Source: a virus. Taken from it: a DNA stretch of 5,575 nt. A model generated the notes under the pieces. That model ran no database searches and was not told where the DNA came from. It was given only the letters and a program-made list of their open reading frames with translations. A program made the translations under genes and the position numbers. Of this stretch, positions 1 to 5,575 are shown in pieces; position 1 is the stretch's first letter; each line of letters starts with the position of its first letter. The DNA is taken from the IMG/VR virus record IMGVR_UViG_3300045988_000304, positions 1 through 5,575 of that record. One strand, given 5' to 3'.

Positions 1-1183
1 CATAGATAACCCAGCAATCAACTCAGTAGACGACGCAACAGTGGACTACAGAGACGACCCGGAAAAAGGCATGGACGGAAAGACTCCAGACATTGACTAC
101 ATACTTCAAAACGCTTACAGAGGCGGCAGACCGTTGCCGGTCAATAAGTTCCATGACTACTTCACATCGGCGCTGCCGGGTCCGCAGAAAACGGGAGAAA
201 CGATAACAATTCCAATGGGCGGAAAAGCGCCGGTATACGGATATGAGTACAACGGCGACACGAAAACGCCGGGAACGTTAAATTTTGTGTCGCACCTCGG
301 GCAAAACTCAACAATAGAAAACACCGACGACGGGCGGTTACAAATTAACGCCTACAAAATAGACAAAGACAATGGAACATACGCATACGAAAGCATGGAC
401 CTATACACGGACATGAGCCAAGTACAGGCAACAACCATCAACCAACTGCGACAGGCATTCCAAGTACAAAAATATTACGAAGAGCTGGCACGCGGCGGCA
501 GCAGATACCGCGAGATGATTTACTCACTGTTCCATACCAAAATCAGTGACAAAACTGTACAGATTCCGGAATATCTCGGCGGTACACGTATCACTATCAA
601 CATGAGTCAAGTCATCCAAACCAGCGGAACAACTACCGAGAGTCCACAGGGTAACACGGCAGCAGTGAGCGTTACACCGTACAACGGCAGCATGTTCACA
701 AAGAGCTTCGAGGAGCACGGCTATGTTATCGGAGTATGCTGCATCCGGCATGACCATACCTACCAGCAGGGACTTGAACGGATGTGGAGTCGTAAAACAA
801 ACCTCGATTTTTACTATCCAGTTTTCGCAAATCTGGGAGAGCAAGCAATTCTCAAAAAAGAGTTGTATCTCACCGGGACGGCAACAGACGAACAGGCATT
901 CGGCTACCAAGAAGCGTGGGCCGAATACCGAATGAAGCCAAACAGAATCTGTGGAAAATTCCGCAGCAACGCAACGGGAACACTGGATAGCTGGCACTAC
1001 GGTGACAACTACAAGGAAACGCCGAGCTTAAGCCAAGCATGGATGAAAGAAGGATATTCAGAAATCCAGCGAACTCTCGCAGTAAGCGACGAACCGCAAT
1101 TTATCATGGATACTATCATTGACAATACCAGCGTAAGACCGATGCCCATGTACAGCATTCCAGGACTCGTAGACCATCACTAA
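1..1183 (+). CDS. VP1: major capsid protein VP1, C-terminal part (codon phase starts at base 2; base 1 is the third position of an AAC codon)
   Basis: The frame is open from base 2 to TAA at 1181-1183. The track's GVG start at 41 is a window-edge artefact, because the identical residues [19 protein letters not shown] end the 5012 ORF. Joined length is 509+1183 = 1692 nt, giving 563 aa, which is typical for gokushovirus VP1. Confidence 0.95.
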
Positions 1184-1195
1184 GAAAGGGGGAAA

Positions 1196-1224
1196 GCCCG
1201 GGGCAAAACCCCGGGCATATTTTT
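1196..1224 (+). terminator. intrinsic terminator/attenuator hairpin between VP1 and VP2
   Basis: A perfect 8-bp GC stem pairs GCCCGGGG (1196-1203) with CCCCGGGC (1209-1216) around the loop CAAAA. It is followed by ATATTTTT (1217-1224). The VP2 ATG follows immediately at 1225. Confidence 0.7.
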
Positions 1225-2103
1225 ATGGGATTTTTAGCAACATTCGGACTGGGGCTACTCAAAACAGCACTGCCAAGCCTAATAGGAGCAGCAGCAAATA
1301 AACTGTTTGGCACAAGTTCAAGCTACGGACAGCAAAGTCAAGCAAACAGTCAAAGCATCGGGTCAAGCTGGTCGCAAGGCTCAAGCGACAGCGCAAGTTT
1401 TAGCAACAGCGGCACAAATGACGCCATAAACCAAAGCATTGCAGCACTAGCAAACCAGTTAAGCCAAGGCAGTATGGCCAACCAGCAAAAATACAATCGC
1501 AATTCAATGCTTATGCAGATGGGATACAACACCTTAGGAGCAATCCAACAAGGCGTATACAATCACATCCAACAGCAAACAGCCATGAGTTACAACTCAG
1601 CAGAAGCGGCAACAAACAGAGCATGGCAAGAAAGAATGAGTAACACAGCATACCAAAGAGCCGTCGAAGATATGCGAAAAGCCGGGATAAATCCTATCTT
1701 AGCATACACACAAGGCGGCGCAAGCACTCCGAGCGGAGCACAGGGAACAATCGGGAGTGCAAGTATGGGCATGGCATCCAGCAGCGCACTAGGAGCAACA
1801 GCATTACCGGGCATAAAACAAGACGGAAGTTGGAGTTCCCATAGTGAAGCATGGAGTCACGCGGAAAACGCAGCACAGAGCATCCAGCAAGCTATCATGT
1901 CAAGCAGCTCAAACCCAGTAAGACTCAAAGGAGACATGGAAGCCATAGCCGAGACGGCGGCAGAAAACGCAGCCAAGCTAAAAGAAAAATTCGCAGCGTT
2001 GCCCGTAAAAGACAAAGCAAAGAAAGGGCTTGCGGAACAGTTCGAACAGGCAAGAAGATACTTGCCCACAGGATACATGAGTATAAATCCGAGAGGGAAA
2101 TAA
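1225..2103 (+). CDS. VP2: minor capsid / DNA pilot protein VP2 (phiX174 H analogue)
   Basis: This 292-aa ORF sits directly after VP1, as in gokushoviruses. It has a hydrophobic N-terminus ([24 protein letters not shown]) and a Q/S/N-rich low-complexity segment. It also carries the conserved block [31 protein letters not shown] (nt 1615-1707), which I recognise from microvirus VP2 proteins. Confidence 0.85.
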
Positions 2104-2104
2104 A

Positions 2105-3124
2105 ATGGGATGCAATAAACCGTTAATCCGGTTTTATGTACCTCATGACAGGGAGGCGAGTGGGCGAGTATACTCACTCGCCTCTTTTAACGAGATGCAT
2201 AAGACAAACCTTAGATACGAAGATCTAATGTACAGAAAAGATGTAATGTTGATACCATGCGGACAATGTACCGGATGTAGACTACGCAAACGAAAAGACT
2301 GGTCAACGCGAATGGAACTAGAAGCATACGGACACAGCAAAGAAACCATCTGGTTTATTACACTAACTTATGACGATGACCATGTACCGACACAGGACAC
2401 CGAAACAGGCGAAATCTATAAAGGCGGCATAAACATCTGGAAAGGCGTCTCAGAGCGTCCAAGAACAGCGCAAACTCTAAGCGTAGAGGATACCCAACTA
2501 TTTATAAAAAGGCTCAGAAAGGCCGTCAAAGAGCCTCTGAGATACTTTTTAGCGGGAGAGTACGGAGACAACACAGCGAGACCACACTATCACATGATAC
2601 TATATGGTTGGCATCCGGACGACTTAAAACCAATCCACAAACTGTCAAGACATGGTCATTATACAAGCGATAAGCTAGTAAAAATCTGGGGACAAGGCAC
2701 AGTTGACATCGCACAGGCAACACCAGAAACATATAATTATGTTGCAGGGTATGTGACCAAGAAACTATACGGCAACGACAAAAAGCGTTACCAGAAAATG
2801 GGTTTAATACCACCATTTTGCACCATGAGCCGCAAACCGGGACTCGGAGACAAGTGGTTCGAAGACAATCAAGAACGACTCTGGCAAAAAGGATACATAC
2901 AGCTTACCAACGGCAAGAGAGCAGCCATACCGGAATACTATTGGAGAAAACTGGAAGCTAAAAACCCAGAAAAAGCATGGAGAATCAAGAAATATCGACA
3001 GGGAAAAGCCATAGCGTCCCTAATCGAAAGAAACGCGGAAACCGACAAGCCATACGCAGAACAGTTAAAAGACAAAGAAGCATCCATGTCGAAGAAAATG
3101 AGCAAAGCCAAAGGCGTATTTTGA
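2105..3124 (+). CDS. VP4: replication initiation protein VP4 (HUH rolling-circle endonuclease, phiX174 A analogue)
   Basis: This 339-aa ORF starts 1 nt after the VP2 stop. It has the Cys cluster IPCGQCTGCRLRKRKDW, motif I FITLTYDD, the HUH motif PHYHMILYG (HYH at nt 2585-2593) and the catalytic Tyr motif YVAGYVTKK (nt 2738-2764). Confidence 0.93.
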   Translation: MGCNKPLIRFYVPHDREASGRVYSLASFNEMHKTNLRYEDLMYRKDVMLIPCGQCTGCRLRKRKDWSTRMELEAYGHSKETIWFITLTYDDDHVPTQDTETGEIYKGGINIWKGVSERPRTAQTLSVEDTQLFIKRLRKAVKEPLRYFLAGEYGDNTARPHYHMILYGWHPDDLKPIHKLSRHGHYTSDKLVKIWGQGTVDIAQATPETYNYVAGYVTKKLYGNDKKRYQKMGLIPPFCTMSRKPGLGDKWFEDNQERLWQKGYIQLTNGKRAAIPEYYWRKLEAKNPEKAWRIKKYRQGKAIASLIERNAETDKPYAEQLKDKEASMSKKMSKAKGVF

Positions 3125-3135
3125 CACTTTGGTGT

Positions 3136-3184
3136 CACTCAGCCAAGTAACTATCAAGTAAGCTACTTGGCTGAGTGTTTTATT
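3136..3184 (+). terminator. strong intrinsic terminator after VP4 (probable end of the genome-length transcription unit)
   Basis: CACTCAGCCAAGTAACT (3136-3152) pairs with AGCTACTTGGCTGAGTG (3161-3177). That gives a 17-bp stem with one mismatch and the loop ATCAAGTA, followed by TTTTATT (3178-3184). A small 6-bp hairpin, TGACAC/GTGTCA (3122-3137), overlaps the VP4 stop codon. Confidence 0.75.
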
Positions 3185-3193
3185 GATTTGTTA

Positions 3194-3237
3194 AATGCAC
3201 ACGCGCGCGCACGTAATCGCGCACGCGCACGTGCATT
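3194..3237. repeat. GC-rich imperfect palindrome made of alternating purine/pyrimidine tracts
   Basis: AATGCAC (3194-3200) pairs with GTGCATT (3231-3237), and inner pairs 3203-3207/3224-3228, 3209-3210/3221-3222 and 3212-3213/3218-3219 also form. In total 16 of 20 positions pair around the loop TAAT (3214-3217). Bases 3196-3215 and 3218-3236 are unbroken pyrimidine-purine alternations (TGCACACGCGCGCGCACGTA and CGCGCACGCGCACGTGCAT). Confidence 0.8.
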
Positions 3238-3259
3238 ATATTATTATTTTTATTATTAA
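3235..3259. other. 25-nt pure A/T tract (candidate DNA unwinding element)
   Basis: ATTATATTATTATTTTTATTATTAA contains no G or C from 3235 to 3259. It lies between the GC palindrome and the (TAG)5 repeat. Confidence 0.6.
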
Positions 3260-3266
3260 CTTGTTG

Positions 3267-3281
3267 TAGTAGTAGTAGTAG
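3267..3281 (+). repeat. (TAG)5 perfect trinucleotide repeat (DnaA-trio-like), followed by the G cluster GGAG
   Basis: TAGTAGTAGTAGTAG is read directly at 3267-3281. It is preceded by TTGTTG and followed by GGAG, then by the first TGTTGAA repeat. Confidence 0.9.
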
Positions 3282-3359
3282 GGAGTGTTGAAATGTTGAA
3301 TACTATGAATTTTTATCCTTGGAACGATATTTTTTGGCTAATTTTAATGTTGATACTTT

Positions 3360-3368
3360 TGTGGATAA
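3360..3368 (-). promoter_or_regulatory. DnaA box, perfect match to TTATCCACA
   Basis: The + strand reads TGTGGATAA, so its reverse complement is TTATCCACA, 9/9 to the strict consensus. Confidence 0.6.
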
Positions 3369-3394
3369 CTTGTTGAAATGTTGAAAGTATAGCA

Positions 3395-3403
3395 ATATGC
3401 ACA
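3395..3403 (+). promoter_or_regulatory. DnaA-box-like 9-mer in the opposite orientation, partly inside a hairpin stem
   Basis: ATATGCACA matches TTWTNCACA at 8/9. Bases 3398-3403 belong to the stem of the 3398-3417 hairpin. Confidence 0.35.
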
Positions 3404-3417
3404 AAAACCTTTGTGCA
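3398..3417 (+). other. 8-bp hairpin TGCACAAA / TTTGTGCA with loop AACC
   Basis: This perfect inverted repeat (3398-3405 and 3410-3417) sits between the second and third iteron clusters. Its stem carries the CACA half of two box-like 9-mers. Confidence 0.6.
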
Positions 3418-3420
3418 ACA
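3412..3420 (-). promoter_or_regulatory. DnaA-box-like 9-mer (one mismatch to the relaxed consensus), 3 nt from the 3424 box
   Basis: The + strand reads TGTGCAACA, against the reverse consensus TGTGNAWAA (8/9). Confidence 0.35.
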
Positions 3421-3423
3421 TTT

Positions 3424-3432
3424 TGTGGAAAA
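3424..3432 (-). promoter_or_regulatory. DnaA box, matches the relaxed consensus TTWTNCACA
   Basis: The + strand reads TGTGGAAAA, so its reverse complement is TTTTCCACA (9/9 relaxed, 8/9 strict). It has the same orientation as the 3360 box and the same position within the 33-nt repeat. Confidence 0.55.
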
Positions 3433-3502
3433 CCTGTTGAAAGTGTTGAAAGTGTTGAAAAAGCAAATAAAGGCCGACCGGCGACCGAGAGCGAGAAGCC
3501 AC

Positions 3503-3542
3503 GTCATGCTCTTCGTACGGCGCACCGCGCCTACCGCATGAC
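3503..3542 (+). other. GC-rich nested stem-loop just upstream of the promoter
   Basis: The outer stem pairs GTCATGC (3503-3509) with GCATGAC (3536-3542). The inner stem pairs GTA-C-GGCGC (3515-3523) with GCGCC-TAC (3527-3534) around the loop ACC. No T-run follows on either strand, so this is not a terminator. Confidence 0.6.
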
Positions 3543-3568
3543 CTCAAATAAAAAGTTTAAAAAACCTC

Positions 3569-3597
3569 TTGACAAATCGAAAAATCTGTGGTATAAT
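3569..3597 (+). promoter_or_regulatory. consensus sigma-70/sigma-A promoter with extended -10 and A/T-rich UP-like region
   Basis: TTGACA (3569-3574) and TATAAT (3592-3597) are separated by an exact 17-nt spacer. TG at 3589-3590 gives TGnTATAAT. The A-rich tract CAAATAAAAAGTTTAAAAAACC lies at 3545-3566. Confidence 0.75.
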
Positions 3598-3621
3598 GCA
3601 GATAGTAAAGGAGGTATAAAG

Positions 3622-3801
3622 ATGAATACCATCAATCATCTGAGCATCAAAGCCTTGAAGGAACTGGAAGAAGTAGGTTCCTACGATACCGCAAAATACA
3701 GATACATTATTAACCAGAGCAATGGAGGATGCTACCGCATCAATAAAGAGCTGCTAGGGACAACGGAAGCGCTCAACCCGGAAAATTGGGTGGAACAGTA
3801 A
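3622..3801 (+). CDS. hypothetical 59-aa protein, first gene downstream of the consensus promoter
   Basis: ATG at 3622 lies 7 nt after AAGGAGG (3608-3614), and TAA is at 3799-3801. The product is MNTINHLSIKALKELEEVGSYDTAKYRYIINQSNGGCYRINKELLGTTEALNPENWVEQ. It has no TM segment and no family I recognise. The track's longer form (3397-3801) would have to read through the promoter and the repeats. Confidence 0.6.
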   Translation: MNTINHLSIKALKELEEVGSYDTAKYRYIINQSNGGCYRINKELLGTTEALNPENWVEQ

Positions 3802-3812
3802 CAAGGTTAAAC

Positions 3813-3831
3813 AGCACAAAGTGCTTTTTTT
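3813..3831 (+). terminator. weak intrinsic terminator/attenuator after the 59-aa ORF
   Basis: AGCAC (3813-3817) and GTGCT (3821-3825) pair around an AAA loop, followed by a run of seven T (3825-3831). The stem is only 5 bp, so it is probably leaky. Confidence 0.45.
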
Positions 3832-3873
3832 ACAAACCATTTATACAAAATAATTTTTTAGGAGGTGTTTGCT

Positions 3874-3978
3874 CTGTCTCTCAAGGAAATTAACGCGCTG
3901 TTTAACAACATCCGCAAAATCTTAGCCATGTTGGATAAGATTTACCACGCAGTAGAGGGGAACAATCCCAAGGAGTAA
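3874..3978 (+). CDS. candidate 34-aa ORF with a non-ATG start (CTG 3874, or GTG 3865 giving 37 aa)
   Basis: AGGAGG lies at 3860-3865. The frame from CTG 3874 reads LSLKEINALFNNIRKILAMLDKIYHAVEGNNPKE and stops at TAA 3976-3978. Its last codons, AAG GAG, form the SD for the next gene, whose GTG is at 3983. The only in-frame ATG (3928) has no SD. The start codon is uncertain. Confidence 0.35.
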   Translation: MSLKEINALFNNIRKILAMLDKIYHAVEGNNPKE

Positions 3979-3982
3979 CCAA

Positions 3983-4204
3983 GTGAAAACGTGGAATATA
4001 CGAGACCAGACCGATACGACGCTAGCGATGACACTCGCCAAAACTTACAAGGAGATCGAGGCGACATACAAGCACGTAAGAGCAGCCGCCACGATAGAAG
4101 ACGCAAAATTTTACATCGACATGGCATTTCGGAAAAAAGCTTTTGCGAATAACATCGAGATGGAACAAATCCGCAGGAGAATCAACAATGGGGAAGAGGA
4201 ATAA
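3983..4204 (+). CDS. hypothetical 73-aa protein
   Basis: GTG at 3983 lies 7 nt after AAGGAG (3970-3975). The predicted product MKTWNIRDQTDTTLAMTLAKTYKEIEATYKHVRAAATIEDAKFYIDMAFRKKAFANNIEMEQIRRRINNGEEE looks helical and charged, and matches no family I recognise. Its 3' end overlaps the next gene by 17 nt. Confidence 0.6.
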   Translation: MKTWNIRDQTDTTLAMTLAKTYKEIEATYKHVRAAATIEDAKFYIDMAFRKKAFANNIEMEQIRRRINNGEEE

Positions 4205-4307
4205 AGTCCGCAAGTCCAAAGACGCAAAAATTTACAACAAGACCGCACGAAAGACCAAAGCTATTAACTTGGGAAGCGGCGCAATGCGAGGAGGCATCAG
4301 ATTATGA
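4188..4307 (+). CDS. small basic DNA-binding protein (phiX174 J / gokushovirus VP8-like), 39 aa
   Basis: This ORF is below the track's size cut-off. ATG at 4188 lies 8 nt after AGGAG (4175-4179). The product is MGKRNKVRKSKDAKIYNKTARKTKAINLGSGAMRGGIRL, with 13 of 39 residues K or R. Its C-terminal RGGIRL resembles the RGGxR(L/F) ending I recall for small DNA-binding proteins of SpV4 and gokushoviruses. Its stop overlaps the next start (ATGA at 4304-4307). Confidence 0.7.
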   Translation: MGKRNKVRKSKDAKIYNKTARKTKAINLGSGAMRGGIRL

Positions 4308-4543
4308 TTAACGTATATGGTATCTATGACCAGTGTGCTATGTGCTATATTACCACCTTTAACGAGCGCGACGACAAAGTCGCCGAGCGCAATTTTAAGA
4401 TTGCGCTGATGGACGAGCACAACATCATGAGCAAAACGCCGAGCGACTACCGGCTTGTGAGACTCGCAAAGTTTGACGAGCGAAACGGCGATTTTGAGGA
4501 AGCAAAGGAGAATATCTACGATGGCATTTCGATCGGTAAGTAA
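4304..4543 (+). CDS. small conserved microvirus nonstructural protein (VP5-like), 79 aa
   Basis: ATG at 4304 lies 9 nt after GAGGAGG (4288-4294). The product begins MINVYGIYDQCAMCYITTFNERDDKVAERNFKIALMDEH...DYRLVRLAKFDERNGDF. This fits my memory of the ~80-aa protein found just upstream of VP3 in gokushoviruses. The VP5 label is from memory, not from a search. Confidence 0.65.
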   Translation: MINVYGIYDQCAMCYITTFNERDDKVAERNFKIALMDEHNIMSKTPSDYRLVRLAKFDERNGDFEEAKENIYDGISIGK

Positions 4544-5015
4544 TTTCCGCGAGACAGCGGAGGAATGGCAGACCGAAGCCGGCGAAACCGTAAGACGGAC
4601 ATACCTCTGGGAACGAAACGAAAAAGGCGAAAAGGTGCTAAAGCTCGACCAAATCATCGACCAGCAAGCAGAAATCGACAGCTACCTGGAAGAAACCAAG
4701 ATCGAAAACATCATCCGACGGGCAAGCATCGACCCAAACATTGCAGCGCGAATCGCGCCAGACCTTGGCGGAGGCATCCAAGACTTTACCGAGATGCCGC
4801 AGACGCTGGCAGAGCTCCAAAATATCATGATCCGAGCTGAACAGATTTGGGATGAAATACCAAAAGAAGCAAAGCTCAAATTTGACAACGACGTCGATAA
4901 ATTTATCTCGTCGTTTGGTACAGCAGAATGGGCTAAAAATCTGGGAATTTACACCGACGAAAAAACCACAACAGAAGCAACCAAAGCAACCGAAACAACG
5001 GAGGCAACTGAATGA
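4521..5015 (+). CDS. VP3: internal scaffolding protein VP3, 164 aa
   Basis: ATG at 4521 lies 10 nt after AAGGAG (4505-4510), which I prefer over the track's TTG at 4473. The block DFTEMPQTLAELQNIMIRAEQIWDEIPKEAKLKFDNDVDKFISSF matches the conserved core of gokushovirus VP3. It sits immediately upstream of VP1, and its stop overlaps the VP1 start. Confidence 0.8.
   Translation: MAFRSVSNFRETAEEWQTEAGETVRRTYLWERNEKGEKVLKLDQIIDQQAEIDSYLEETKIENIIRRASIDPNIAARIAPDLGGGIQDFTEMPQTLAELQNIMIRAEQIWDEIPKEAKLKFDNDVDKFISSFGTAEWAKNLGIYTDEKTTTEATKATETTEATE
4968..5012 (+). repeat. five imperfect 9-nt (3-codon) tandem repeats encoding the TTE-ATK-ATE-TTE-ATE tail of VP3
   Basis: The sequence reads ACAACAGAA GCAACCAAA GCAACCGAA ACAACGGAG GCAACTGAA. 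The fourth unit contains the GGAGG SD of VP1. Confidence 0.7.
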
Positions 5016-5575
5016 ACAGAAACAAAGACGCGGGATTTAATCAAGTACCAAGACTAAACATCACGCGAAGCCGCTTTAAGCGGCGGCAGGACGTCAAACT
5101 AACAATGAACGCAGGCCAGCTAATCCCGTTTTATGTCGATGAAGTGCTTCCGGGCGATACCTTTAGCATCGACCAAGCGGCGATCATCCGCATGACAACG
5201 CCCATCTTTCCAGTGATGGACAACTGCTACATGGACATCTATTATTTTTTCACTCCTAACCGGATTTTGTGGAAAAACTGGAAACGATTTATGGGCGAAA
5301 ACGACAACGGACCGTGGGCACAGAAGCAAGAATACACCATACCGCAAATCGCATGTAACTACGGGACGGCAGAAAATCCACTGCCAAAAGAAGGAAGCAT
5401 CATGGACTACATGGGCGTCCCAACAAAAGTAAACAAAAGTAAAGAAACAGCATTTTACATAAACGCGCTGCCGTTCCGAGCATATGCAATGATATGGCAA
5501 GAGTGGTTTAGAGACCAAAACATAGATAACCCAGCAATCAACTCAGTAGACGACGCAACAGTGGACTACAGAGAC
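5012..5575 (+). CDS. VP1: major capsid protein VP1 (phiX174 F-like), N-terminal part; runs off the window end and continues at base 1
   Basis: The ATG at 5012 overlaps the VP3 stop (ATGA), with GGAGG at 5000-5004 seven nt upstream. My own translation is open to the window end: MNRNKDAGFNQVPRLNITRSRFKRRQDVKLTMNAGQLIPFYVDEVLPGDTFSIDQAAIIRMTTPIFPVMDNCYMDIYYFFTPNRILWKNWKRFMGEN... This is the conserved N-terminus of Microviridae capsid proteins. It is missing from the ORF track because it has no in-window stop. The frame is continuous with 1-1183 across the 55-nt duplication (5520 is divisible by 3). Confidence 0.95.
   Translation, partial: MNRNKDAGFNQVPRLNITRSRFKRRQDVKLTMNAGQLIPFYVDEVLPGDTFSIDQAAIIRMTTPIFPVMDNCYMDIYYFFTPNRILWKNWKRFMGENDNGPWAQKQEYTIPQIACNYGTAENPLPKEGSIMDYMGVPTKVNKSKETAFYINALPFRAYAMIWQEWFRDQNIDNPAINSVDDATVDYRD
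5521..5575. repeat. 55-nt exact terminal redundancy with bases 1-55 (circular-genome assembly overlap)
   Basis: CATAGATAACCCAGCAATCAACTCAGTAGACGACGCAACAGTGGACTACAGAGAC occurs at both ends of the window and lies inside the VP1 reading frame. Confidence 0.97.

Follow-up and report, generated by a model that had tools for sequence, protein, structure and literature searches.

Which protein reads the short direct repeats that follow the replication initiator gene VP4 of a gokushovirus? The question is raised by IMG/VR record IMGVR_UViG_3300045988_000304, positions 1 to 5,575 of which were analysed (hereafter the window, meaning this whole stretch of 5,575 nucleotides, nt). The window comprises the circular genome of a gokushovirus (Microviridae), 5520 nt long, plus a terminal redundancy of 55 nt; the + strand is the coding strand of all genes. 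A preliminary description had seen in its non-coding region, after VP4, a set of iterons for an unknown DNA-binding protein. An origin-type array does lie there beside an AT-rich tract; the binder, in contrast, need not be left nameless, as such arrays match the dnaA-dnaN regions of bacterial chromosomes. Judging from sequence, the TGTTGAA repeats, together with a string of DnaA-trios, a short spacer and an AT tract, probably constitute a phage-borne version of the opening module of the host chromosome origin (oriC), which would be opened by the host initiator DnaA. This view is drawn from the architecture of the region, from its conservation among relatives and from its near-identity to the cores of host origins, all of which are observed directly; DnaA binding, unwinding and downstream use of the open complex would follow from it. 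The parts of the module are, in order:

3235-3259: AT-only run of 25 nt, placed like a DNA-unwinding element relative to the trios and boxes
3259-3266, + strand: phage-specific motif, ACTTGTTG, inserted between AT tract and trios
3267-3281, + strand: (TAG)5, the DnaA-trios (3'-GAT-5'), from the sequence and from TRF
3282-3285, + strand: GGAG, G-rich spacer of 4 nt that separates the first box from the trios
3286-3302, + strand: trio-proximal pair of boxes, TGTTGAAAT and TGTTGAATA, 8 nt apart
3348-3387, + strand: distal cluster of four boxes, TGTTGATAC, TGTGGATAA, TGTTGAAAT and TGTTGAAAG, spaced by 12, 11 and 8 nt
3424-3461, + strand: distal cluster, first one TGTGGAAAA and then three TGTTGAAAN, spaced by 11, 9 and 9 nt

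Architecture of the repeat region

The repeats themselves are real. TGTTGAA occurs seven times without mismatch (at 3286, 3294, 3371, 3379, 3435, 3444 and 3453), always on the + strand, where 0.94 copies would be expected on both strands together, and seven copies were reached in none of 200 dinucleotide-preserving shuffles. The variant TGTTGAT at 3348 and the spacings first reported, 8 nt within the pairs 3286/3294 and 3371/3379 and 9 nt within the triplet 3435/3444/3453, were recovered as well. The TGTTGAA core of the repeat unit can be kept, but not its length of 7 nt, since the functional unit spans 8-9 nt (TGTKGAWAN). Two better DnaA boxes share the orientation of the repeats, as had been noticed: TGTGGATAA at 3360-3368, which is TTATCCACA in exact reverse complement, and TGTGGAAAA at 3424-3432. 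Taken together, repeats and better boxes form three clusters of variants of a single box, TGTKGAWAA, whose reverse complement reads TT(T/A)TCAACA for the T-type and TT(T/A)TCA/CACA overall. About 45 nt of AT-rich DNA separate the first pair from the four-box cluster.

What the preliminary description overlooked is the (TAG)5 string at 3267-3281, directly 5' of the first TGTTGAA pair. In the basal unwinding system of bacterial origins, a pair of boxes is bound by DnaA, which extends from there along DnaA-trios (3'-GAT-5') and opens the AT-rich DNA beside them (PMC8287927, PMC6669920). Published search rules ask for at least three trios of the form NAN, and for a box with at most two mismatches to the species motif or to TTATCCACA within 0-16 bp of them; the gap between trios and box, previously named the GC-rich region, averages 4 bp (PMC8287927). 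The (TAG)5 string provides at least three consecutive trios with a central A, and the boxes reading like TGTGGATAA lie 3' of the 5'-TAG-3' trios on one strand. All parts, namely the AT tract, (TAG)5, GGAG and two boxes, are thus in the right order and orientation on a single strand. The window falls under the published rules: three or more NAN trios have a box no more than 16 bp away, with a gap of about 4 bp next to them. The distance from the trios is 4 nt for TGTTGAAAT and 12 nt for TGTTGAATA, and both boxes show two mismatches to TTWTNCACA. By manual count, these proximal boxes differ at one or two positions from TGTKGAAAA, the variant of Oscillospiraceae origins.

The AT run is the stability minimum of the entire 5520-nt genome, whether 20, 30 or 50 nt are averaged (starts at 3235-3237), and it lies about 3.8 standard deviations below the mean at 20 and 30 nt. 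The AT-rich surroundings previously reported were found again, with a GC content of 26-27% over 3250-3400 and the least stable duplex of the genome starting at 3235.

Near-identity to the cores of bacterial origins

Three tandem TGTKGAAA with gaps of 0-4 nt, a pattern that does not include trios, were searched for in 185,579 species genomes, and at least 120 loci were returned. Going by record titles, about 57 of the 120 matches listed belong to Clostridia, mostly Oscillospiraceae, Ruminococcaceae and Ruminococcus. The gene context was established by tblastn with the DnaA, DnaN and RpmH proteins of Bacillus subtilis as queries (E-values to 1e-146) in 8-kb blocks around the arrays, and the resulting counts of dnaA-linked arrays are lower bounds. 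At least 18 of the 120 matches listed have their array within or next to an intergenic region that flanks dnaA, in most cases the dnaA-dnaN spacer; a 19th locus has only a weak partial match to DnaA, about 1.8 kb from the array. By our estimate, chance would account for far fewer than one such linkage.

Ten origins read, successively, AT-rich DNA, five or six TAG-like trios, a 4-nt G-rich spacer, TGTKGAAAC and TGTKGAAAAC. Runs of (TAG)4-6 stand 5' of the boxes in the dnaA-dnaN spacers of loci L204, L210, L214, L223 and L257, and the 4-nt spacers of host origins are GGGG, GGTA, GGGC, GGCC and GTGT. Three of these cores compare with that of the window as follows:

L204, Oscillospiraceae: ATATATGTT-(TAG)5-GGGG-TGTTGAAAC-TGTTGAAAAC
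L214, Ruminococcus: (TAG)5-GGTA-TGTTGAAAC-TGTGGAAAAG
L223: (TAG)5-GGGC-TGTTGAAAC-AGTGGAAAAC
Window: (TAG)5-GGAG-TGTTGAAA-TGTTGAATAC

Window positions 3267-3293 agree with L204 at 26 of 27 bases and with L214 and L223 at 25 of 27. The likeness extends to the distal clusters: 3424-3453 matches the dnaA-dnaN spacer of L214 at 30 of 31 bases, and TGTTGAAATGTTGAAA, taken from the four-box cluster, is found exactly in the origin of L204. Host origins also have an AT-rich run at the corresponding place, which abuts the trios directly, without an insert resembling ACTTGTTG. The published Clostridioides difficile trio element, 5'-CACCTACTACTATTACTACTATGA-3', is the reverse complement of TCATAGTAGTAATAGTAGTAGGTG/TAGTAGTAATAGTAGTAGGTG (PMC7561715), and this element shares the trio-box orientation of the window.

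Because matching arrays sit at chromosomal origins, the binder would be a host protein rather than a Rep encoded by the element. Host DnaA, VP4 and two small proteins of 59 and 73 amino acids (aa) encoded downstream had been put forward as candidates. The case for DnaA is strengthened by arrays that show the matching trio and spacer context in bacterial dnaA-dnaN regions devoid of phage genes. The same arrays speak against the 59-aa and 73-aa proteins, the former of which occurs in 22 of 150 related genomes, and VP4 is disfavoured by arrays that remain unchanged while it diverges to 33% identity. Nor are the repeats degenerate versions of a DnaA box, as had been supposed: their unit is the variant that dominates the origins of Oscillospiraceae and Ruminococcus.

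Conservation among related microviruses

Relatives were gathered by BLAST against GenBank phages and by two pattern scans of IMG/VR (84 loci; at least 120 loci), and duplicates were removed. The module was found in at least 159 distinct microvirus genomes from the gut, directly 3' of VP4 in every record inspected. BLAST shows the non-coding region to be common to many gokushoviruses from the gut of humans, pigs and monkeys. Several of the records can still be aligned by megablast over 3346-3461 only, at about 87% identity, which indicates slower evolution of this stretch than of the coding sequence. Likewise, the 43-nt core at 3258-3300 is 77-100% identical, even where VP4, whose identity to the window ranges from 33 to 96% (median 55%), has diverged most.

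Among the 159 genomes, the 260 nt after TTGTTG hold a median of nine boxes on the same strand and of zero on the other. The trio string reads TAG-NNG-TAG-TAG-TAG, with the three box-proximal TAGs retained in nearly all genomes, and the last trio lies 5 nt from the GTK core (a 4-nt spacer before the 9-mer) in 130 of 155. Among box variants, GTTGAAA was counted 1009 times, GTGGAAA 197, GTTAAAA 63, GTTGATA 55 and GTGGATA 34; the variable base of the 1209 GT?GAAA cores is T in 1009, G in 197, A in 2 and C in 1. T and G interchange at matching box positions between relatives. For example, TGTGGATAA of the window is replaced by TGTTGAAAA, at the same position, in most of them. The first box of the window, TGTTGAAA, is GTGGAAAA in most relatives, and the consensus of the trio-proximal pair is (N)GTGGAAAA-GTTGAAAA.

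The insert ACTTGTTG is conserved, too. Its TTGTTG is nearly invariant among relatives and absent from host origins; the region reads A[AC]CTTGTTGTAG in 76 of 88 anchor-selected relatives, the others showing mostly one-base changes (AATTTG, AAGTTG), apart from two that have a contig end there.

A comparison of copy number across related genomes, which the preliminary description had advised, reveals that the last cluster varies by whole 9-nt units, from two to four. The smallest version, in genome L005, consists of the AT tract, trios, spacer and two boxes. Loss of the repeats in otherwise near-identical genomes had been named as evidence against a function. Two genomes, L036 and L044, seemed to lack the module; their contig ends fall inside the region, between the hairpin that follows VP4 and the second cluster, and hence they give no evidence of loss. 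The repeat-rich origin region seems to break assemblies, and circular-genome calls may often end there.

Box type and predicted host

Origins were classed by their ratio of GTTGAAA to GTGGAWA:

Clostridium-like, G-rich: L210, 1:10; L298, 0:11
Oscillospiraceae, Ruminococcus and related Clostridia, T-rich: L244, 23:0; L214, 26:7; L204, 14:7
Further T-rich loci of the same groups: L223, 9:4; L282, 6:0; L287, 7:2

Within the T-rich loci, the dnaA-dnaN spacer is strongly enriched in boxes over the remaining sequence of the locus. In the phage family, T accounts for 84%, as calculated from the two commonest box variants. Because this box type matches the T-rich origins of Oscillospiraceae and Ruminococcus, the host of the phage is predicted to belong to Oscillospiraceae or Ruminococcaceae/Ruminococcus. 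The promoter of the window and its AGGAGG ribosome-binding site fit a Firmicutes host. The T-type box has precedents: TT(T/A)TCAACA, the reverse complement of TGTTGA(A/T)AA, was proposed as a mollicute DnaA-box consensus or variant (PMC3322544), and TTTTCAACA was used earlier as a 'non-perfect DnaA box' (PMC2671203).

The recognition helix of DnaA reads RDHSTIVY(S/A) or RDHSTMTT in the GTTGAAA-rich lineages (L204, L214, L223, L244, L282 and L287), as against RDHTTVIHA in B. subtilis and RDHSTVMH(A/G) in G-type, Clostridium-like lineages. A His is thus replaced by Tyr or Thr in the T-type lineages; this residue presumably corresponds to H439 of Escherichia coli DnaA. The spirochaete locus L301 has Tyr in the helix, yet G-type boxes, and for this reason the link between helix and box type is a lead only and not a strict rule.

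Similar modules in other phages

A third scan of viral sequences, for TAGTAG, a spacer of 3-8 nt and two TGTGGAWA, returned 76 contigs (L308-L383), with no dnaA, dnaN or rpmH in the stretch examined of each. Five of them (L336, L328, L337, L366 and L374) are microviruses of 4.0-4.8 kb, about 37% identical to the window in VP1 and 29% in VP4. In L336, positions 4130-4300, after VP4, contain four perfect TTATCCACA, then CACATTTCCACATTTCCACA (three more boxes), an ATGC spacer, (CTA)5, an AT tract and a promoter; going by these letters, the region is unmistakably an oriC-like module with canonical boxes. Relative to the genes, the orientation of the module in this 4.7-kb clade is opposite to that in the window.

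Larger viral contigs (14-160 kb) also carry modules of trios, spacer and double box, and one family of about 25 of them has TAGGTAGTAGATAGTAGGCACCTGTGGATATGTGGATAACCCC in common. In L309 (at about 4491), the module comes right after genes for a helix-turn-helix protein and a DnaB-like helicase; in L364 (at about 11896), it adjoins genes for a PD-(D/E)XK nuclease, a methylase and a beta-clamp-like protein.

How the module might act

On the double-stranded replicative form, host DnaA-ATP would bind the box clusters. From the trio-proximal pair (3286-3302), DnaA would oligomerise onto the + strand trios (3267-3281), and the adjacent AT tract and ACTTGTTG (3235-3266) would melt, giving an opening that spans 3235-3285. 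The two distal clusters, 60-170 nt away, could play the part of the distal boxes of incC. At that B. subtilis locus, trio-proximal and distal boxes are both required, the distal ones acting at variable distance and probably through a DNA loop (PMC6669920).

The open DNA could start phage DNA synthesis in two ways. First, single-stranded DNA (ssDNA) might be offered to the HUH nickase VP4, since HUH nickases cut DNA in single-stranded form. Second, the host helicase-loading machinery might enter and initiate theta-type replication. That host proteins (DnaA, DnaD, DnaB and the helicase loader) initiate the replicative form as a minichromosome, beside VP4 or independently of it, is a doubtful extension of this scheme. 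A role on the viral ssDNA, in which a hairpin would make a box double-stranded, was considered and set aside, as only an unconvincing 8-bp pairing of AAATGTTG with CAACATTT was found.

Several points weigh against a DnaA-opened module. The second trio is often NCG in relatives, and so without the central A. By manual count, both trio-proximal boxes have three mismatches to the strict E. coli consensus TTATCCACA, and the rule that a box must lie near the trios consequently holds only with a relaxed motif, TTWTNCACA, or with the lineage's own. The box spacing of 8-9 nt is tighter than the 11 nt of E. coli arrays; the host origins studied here show 9 nt. The classical gokushoviruses phiMH2K, Chp2 and SpV4 contain no such module. 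Moreover, it is not obvious why a microvirus should require an unwinding module, given that these phages bring a rolling-circle initiator of their own and that phiX174 does without DnaA. The inverted module of the 4.7-kb clade counts against every form of the proposal that depends on which strand bears the trios, and argues that opening of the duplex as such is what matters. A chromosome origin would lie next to dnaA or dnaN, and the module lies between VP4 and small phage open reading frames (ORFs). Being part of a microvirus genome, it would work like an oriC opening module without being oriC.

Alternative explanations

The boxes could serve as a sink, titrating or sensing host DnaA rather than opening phage DNA. 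A high-copy replicative form would then halt host initiation, or phage development would be tied to the level of DnaA-ATP. About ten same-strand boxes per genome, and distal clusters that have no trios of their own, would suit such a function, and the box regions of the B. subtilis origin were first defined by the incompatibility that they cause on plasmids, hence their names incA, incB and incC. Titration, however, requires neither trios nor a fixed spacer nor an ordered AT tract, all of which are conserved, and what the minimal version of L005 retains is the unwinding core rather than most of the boxes. We regard a sink as rather unlikely.

Unlikely, too, is an operator array through which DnaA, a known transcription factor, or another host factor would regulate the promoter at 3569 or read-through from VP4. 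The distance reported earlier is correct, in that the repeats lie 110-283 nt upstream of a perfect TTGACA-17-TATAAT (3569-3597), and triple arrays of this box occur at many non-origin sites of Clostridia, often just upstream of genes. Yet no box overlaps the -35 or -10 hexamer, the DNA between array and promoter differs in sequence between subgroups and varies in length, and the 4.7-kb clade has its module the other way round with respect to the promoter. Regulation would also leave the trios and the AT tract without explanation.

Phage-specific iterons, bound by VP4 or by a small phage protein (the 73-aa protein or VP5) and working like the bind locus of pMV158 RepB or the Rep iterons of CRESS viruses, are much less probable. 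Direct repeats near a possible nick motif, ACTTG at 3259, and a position that is always beside the VP4 gene would be expected of them; 113 of 150 genomes have a detectable 73-aa ORF, and the PHROG family that VP5 matches is annotated 'DNA binding protein'. Against this, arrays identical down to the trio and spacer context stand in dnaA-dnaN spacers without phage genes, and the boxes do not change across VP4 proteins only 33% identical. The other small proteins are sporadic (59-aa in 22 of 150 genomes, 37-aa in 41 of 150), and the distant microvirus clade uses perfect TTATCCACA.

The repeats might instead be 0A boxes (TGTCGAA-like sites of Spo0A) that silence the phage in sporulating Clostridia, as in phi29, a reading that we consider highly improbable. 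Many Oscillospiraceae form spores, and TGTTGAA is one base from TGTCGAA. A passage of PMC7561715, which cites Boonstra 2013, has 0A boxes overlapping DnaA boxes at the B. subtilis origin. The consensus base C is nevertheless avoided, with a single instance at position 4 among the 1209 cores; host origin spacers hold zero or one GTCGAAA, and the trio context would have no role. TGTCGAA is absent from the intergenic region of the window, its sole copy being at 3087, inside VP4.

That the repeats are merely codons of a small ORF, QHFVENLLKVLKVLK, running across the third cluster is barely credible: a frame is open at 3413-3541 (also 3397-3801) and is annotated 'hypothetical protein' in some GenBank relatives, but it lacks a conserved start (the window type has no ATG, and others have ATA instead) and a ribosome-binding site, varies from 16 to 86 residues with frame-shifted tails and leaves clusters 1 and 2 outside, while the arrays also occur in non-coding host origins, so that ORF 3413-3541 is probably not a gene. 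Operators of the WalR type (TGTWAH-N5-TGTWAH) and of CtsR, Rex and ribbon-helix-helix proteins were considered and dropped because the core and the spacings of 8, 9, 11 and 12 nt misfit, and were then superseded by the match to origins.

Relation to known replication systems

The closest counterpart of the proposed opening module is the basal unwinding system of oriC, as in boxes 6 and 7 of B. subtilis incC and in oriC2 of C. difficile, with which the window shares order, orientation and distal boxes. It differs in its place, after VP4 on a 5.5-kb rolling-circle ssDNA phage instead of between dnaA and dnaN, in the phage-specific ACTTGTTG between AT tract and trios, and in proximal boxes that are 8 nt apart rather than 9 nt as in the host origins compared here.

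Theta origins of plasmids and phages (P1 oriR, F, pSC101, RK2 and R6K) combine an initiator of their own with host DnaA boxes by an AT-rich region; they carry Rep iterons of 17-22 bp and one to a few DnaA boxes, and we know of no DnaA-trio element in them. The window, in contrast, has no separate Rep iterons, its array is wholly of the DnaA type and its initiator is an HUH rolling-circle nickase. With iteron origins in general it has in common same-strand tandem repeats, an AT-rich tract and a non-coding position beside an initiator gene; its units, however, measure 8-9 nt where iterons are typically 17-22 bp, and its arrays are also found at chromosomal origins.

VP4 belongs to the same initiator superfamily as the gpA protein of phiX174, whose 30-bp origin site (CAACTTG^ATATTAATAAC) lies inside gene A. 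On the + strand of the window, only AACTTG at 3258 (ACTTG at 3259) recalls this site; ACTTGATAG occurs on the minus strand, in the loop of a hairpin at 3149-3160. The resemblance of ACTTGTTG to the origin core CAACTTG^A makes it a candidate nick site for VP4. Finally, the Spo0A boxes of phi29 and the datA and DARS loci are similar in being clusters of host-regulator sites that tie replication to the state of the host; datA and DARS have no trios and no unwinding element.

No description of a gokushovirus or other member of the Microviridae with DnaA, a DnaA box or oriC was found by full-text search, and nothing relevant, judged by title, in the literature on DnaA-trios plus phage. DnaA-trio unwinding modules appear to have been described so far only at the origins of bacterial chromosomes. 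If the module is opened by DnaA, a rolling-circle ssDNA phage with its own nickase would also need the chromosomal initiator of its host, and the textbook picture of microvirus replication, derived from phiX174, would change. Box variant and trio core would provide a sequence-based predictor of hosts for the abundant uncultured gokushoviruses of the gut, and the modules would offer natural substrates of about 70 bp for studies of origin opening. TTTTCAACA would be a lineage-specific DnaA-box variant of Oscillospiraceae and Ruminococcus origins, coinciding with changes in the recognition helix. The further viral matches suggest that several kinds of phages use the same device. With two microvirus clades and tailed-phage contigs, DnaA-trio modules could represent a widespread, undescribed class of phage origins. 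Should the minichromosome extension hold, gut microviruses would have a plasmid-like carrier state in Oscillospiraceae, coupled to the cell cycle.

Flanking elements

After the stop codon of VP4, the + strand presents in turn a hairpin, a palindrome, the AT tract, ACTTGTTG, (TAG)5, GGAG, the box clusters and a promoter. The elements outside the module, or between its clusters, are:

3136-3177, + strand: terminator-like hairpin and T-run immediately 3' of the VP4 stop; inverted repeat of 17 nt, 94% complementary
3194-3237: imperfect palindrome (CG/CA)n, G+C-rich, of alternating purine and pyrimidine, with 20-nt arms that are 80% complementary
3398-3417: small hairpin between the second and third box clusters
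3414-3420, minus strand: single partial box, TGTTGCA, within the conserved TTGTGCAACATTTTGTGG
3569-3597, + strand: consensus sigma-70-type promoter, TTGACA-17-TATAAT with TG, 12 of 12 matches

The hairpin at 3136-3177 is highly conserved in the alignment of relatives. Its loop core (C)TATCAAG is kept while the stems vary, with 44 distinct 5' arms in 123 genomes. Read on the minus strand, the loop gives CTTGATAG, the nick motif of phiX174 and pC194. The hairpin could be a nick or recognition site of VP4, a complementary-strand origin or only a terminator; as a nick site, it would raise the question of which strand is packaged. There are thus two candidate nick sites for VP4, TATTAACTTGTTGTAG on the + strand and CTTACTTGATAGTT in the hairpin loop of the minus strand. 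In Chlamydia phage 2 (L306), a + strand hairpin at about 2915-2960 has the loop CTACTTGATC, containing ACTTGAT. The same genome shows, at 2815-2880 after VP3, A-tract repeats phased at intervals of about 12 nt (TGTGCAAAAAAG, TGTGCAAAAAAT and GCCCAAAAAAAG), including two TGTGCAAAA that fit TGTGNAWAA, with no trios nearby.

The palindrome at 3194-3237, which borders the AT tract, forms conserved columns in an alignment of 88 sequences and is present in most relatives. It is prone to form Z-DNA or a cruciform and is absent from the host origins inspected. Rfam, applied to the whole window in E-value mode, returned only a chance-level miRNA match over this GC palindrome, and no known RNA family therefore accounts for the repeat region.

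The promoter at 3569 is treated here as a neighbour of the repeat module, its membership being only putative. Behind it come an AGGAGG ribosome-binding site and a first gene that varies: relatives have a similar promoter in front of different first genes. A G+C-rich stretch at 3465-3545 separates it from the last box cluster. Relatives fall into two types by the sequence of this stretch, in which short hairpins occur, such as GCGCTAAAGCGC in the type other than that of the window.

Away from origins, a triple array, TGTKGAAAAC-TC-TGTKGAAA(G/C)-TGTKGAAAAC, recurs in Oscillospiraceae, Ruminococcaceae and Clostridiales (L191, L193, L213, L227, L228, L273, L290, L300, L302, L303, L304 and others), near an rlmB-like methyltransferase gene in 4 of 14 loci inspected. 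These arrays are possibly DnaA-box clusters or DnaA-regulated promoters.

Genome context

The window is organized as follows:

5012 to 1183, spanning the join, + strand: VP1
1225-2103, + strand: VP2
2105-3124, + strand: VP4, replication initiator (PHROG 942, Pfam REP_ORF2-G2P)
3125-3621: non-coding region after VP4, 497 nt
3' of the non-coding region, + strand: small ORFs, then VP5 (Pfam Phage_ORF5) and VP3 (Pfam Chlamy_scaf)

Against Pfam, VP4 matches REP_ORF2-G2P, and Phage_GPA weakly. Among the small ORFs, those of 59 aa and 37 aa occur in 22 and 41 of 150 related genomes, respectively. Neither PHROGs nor Pfam gave a function for the 59-, 37- or 73-aa ORFs, and the 73-aa ORF has no match in either. 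The latter (3983-4204), being detectable in 113 of 150 related genomes, can be classed as a conserved accessory gene. The start of a basic protein of 39 aa (4188-4307, PHROG 10695), which is probably the VP8/J-like DNA-binding protein, overlaps with this ORF.

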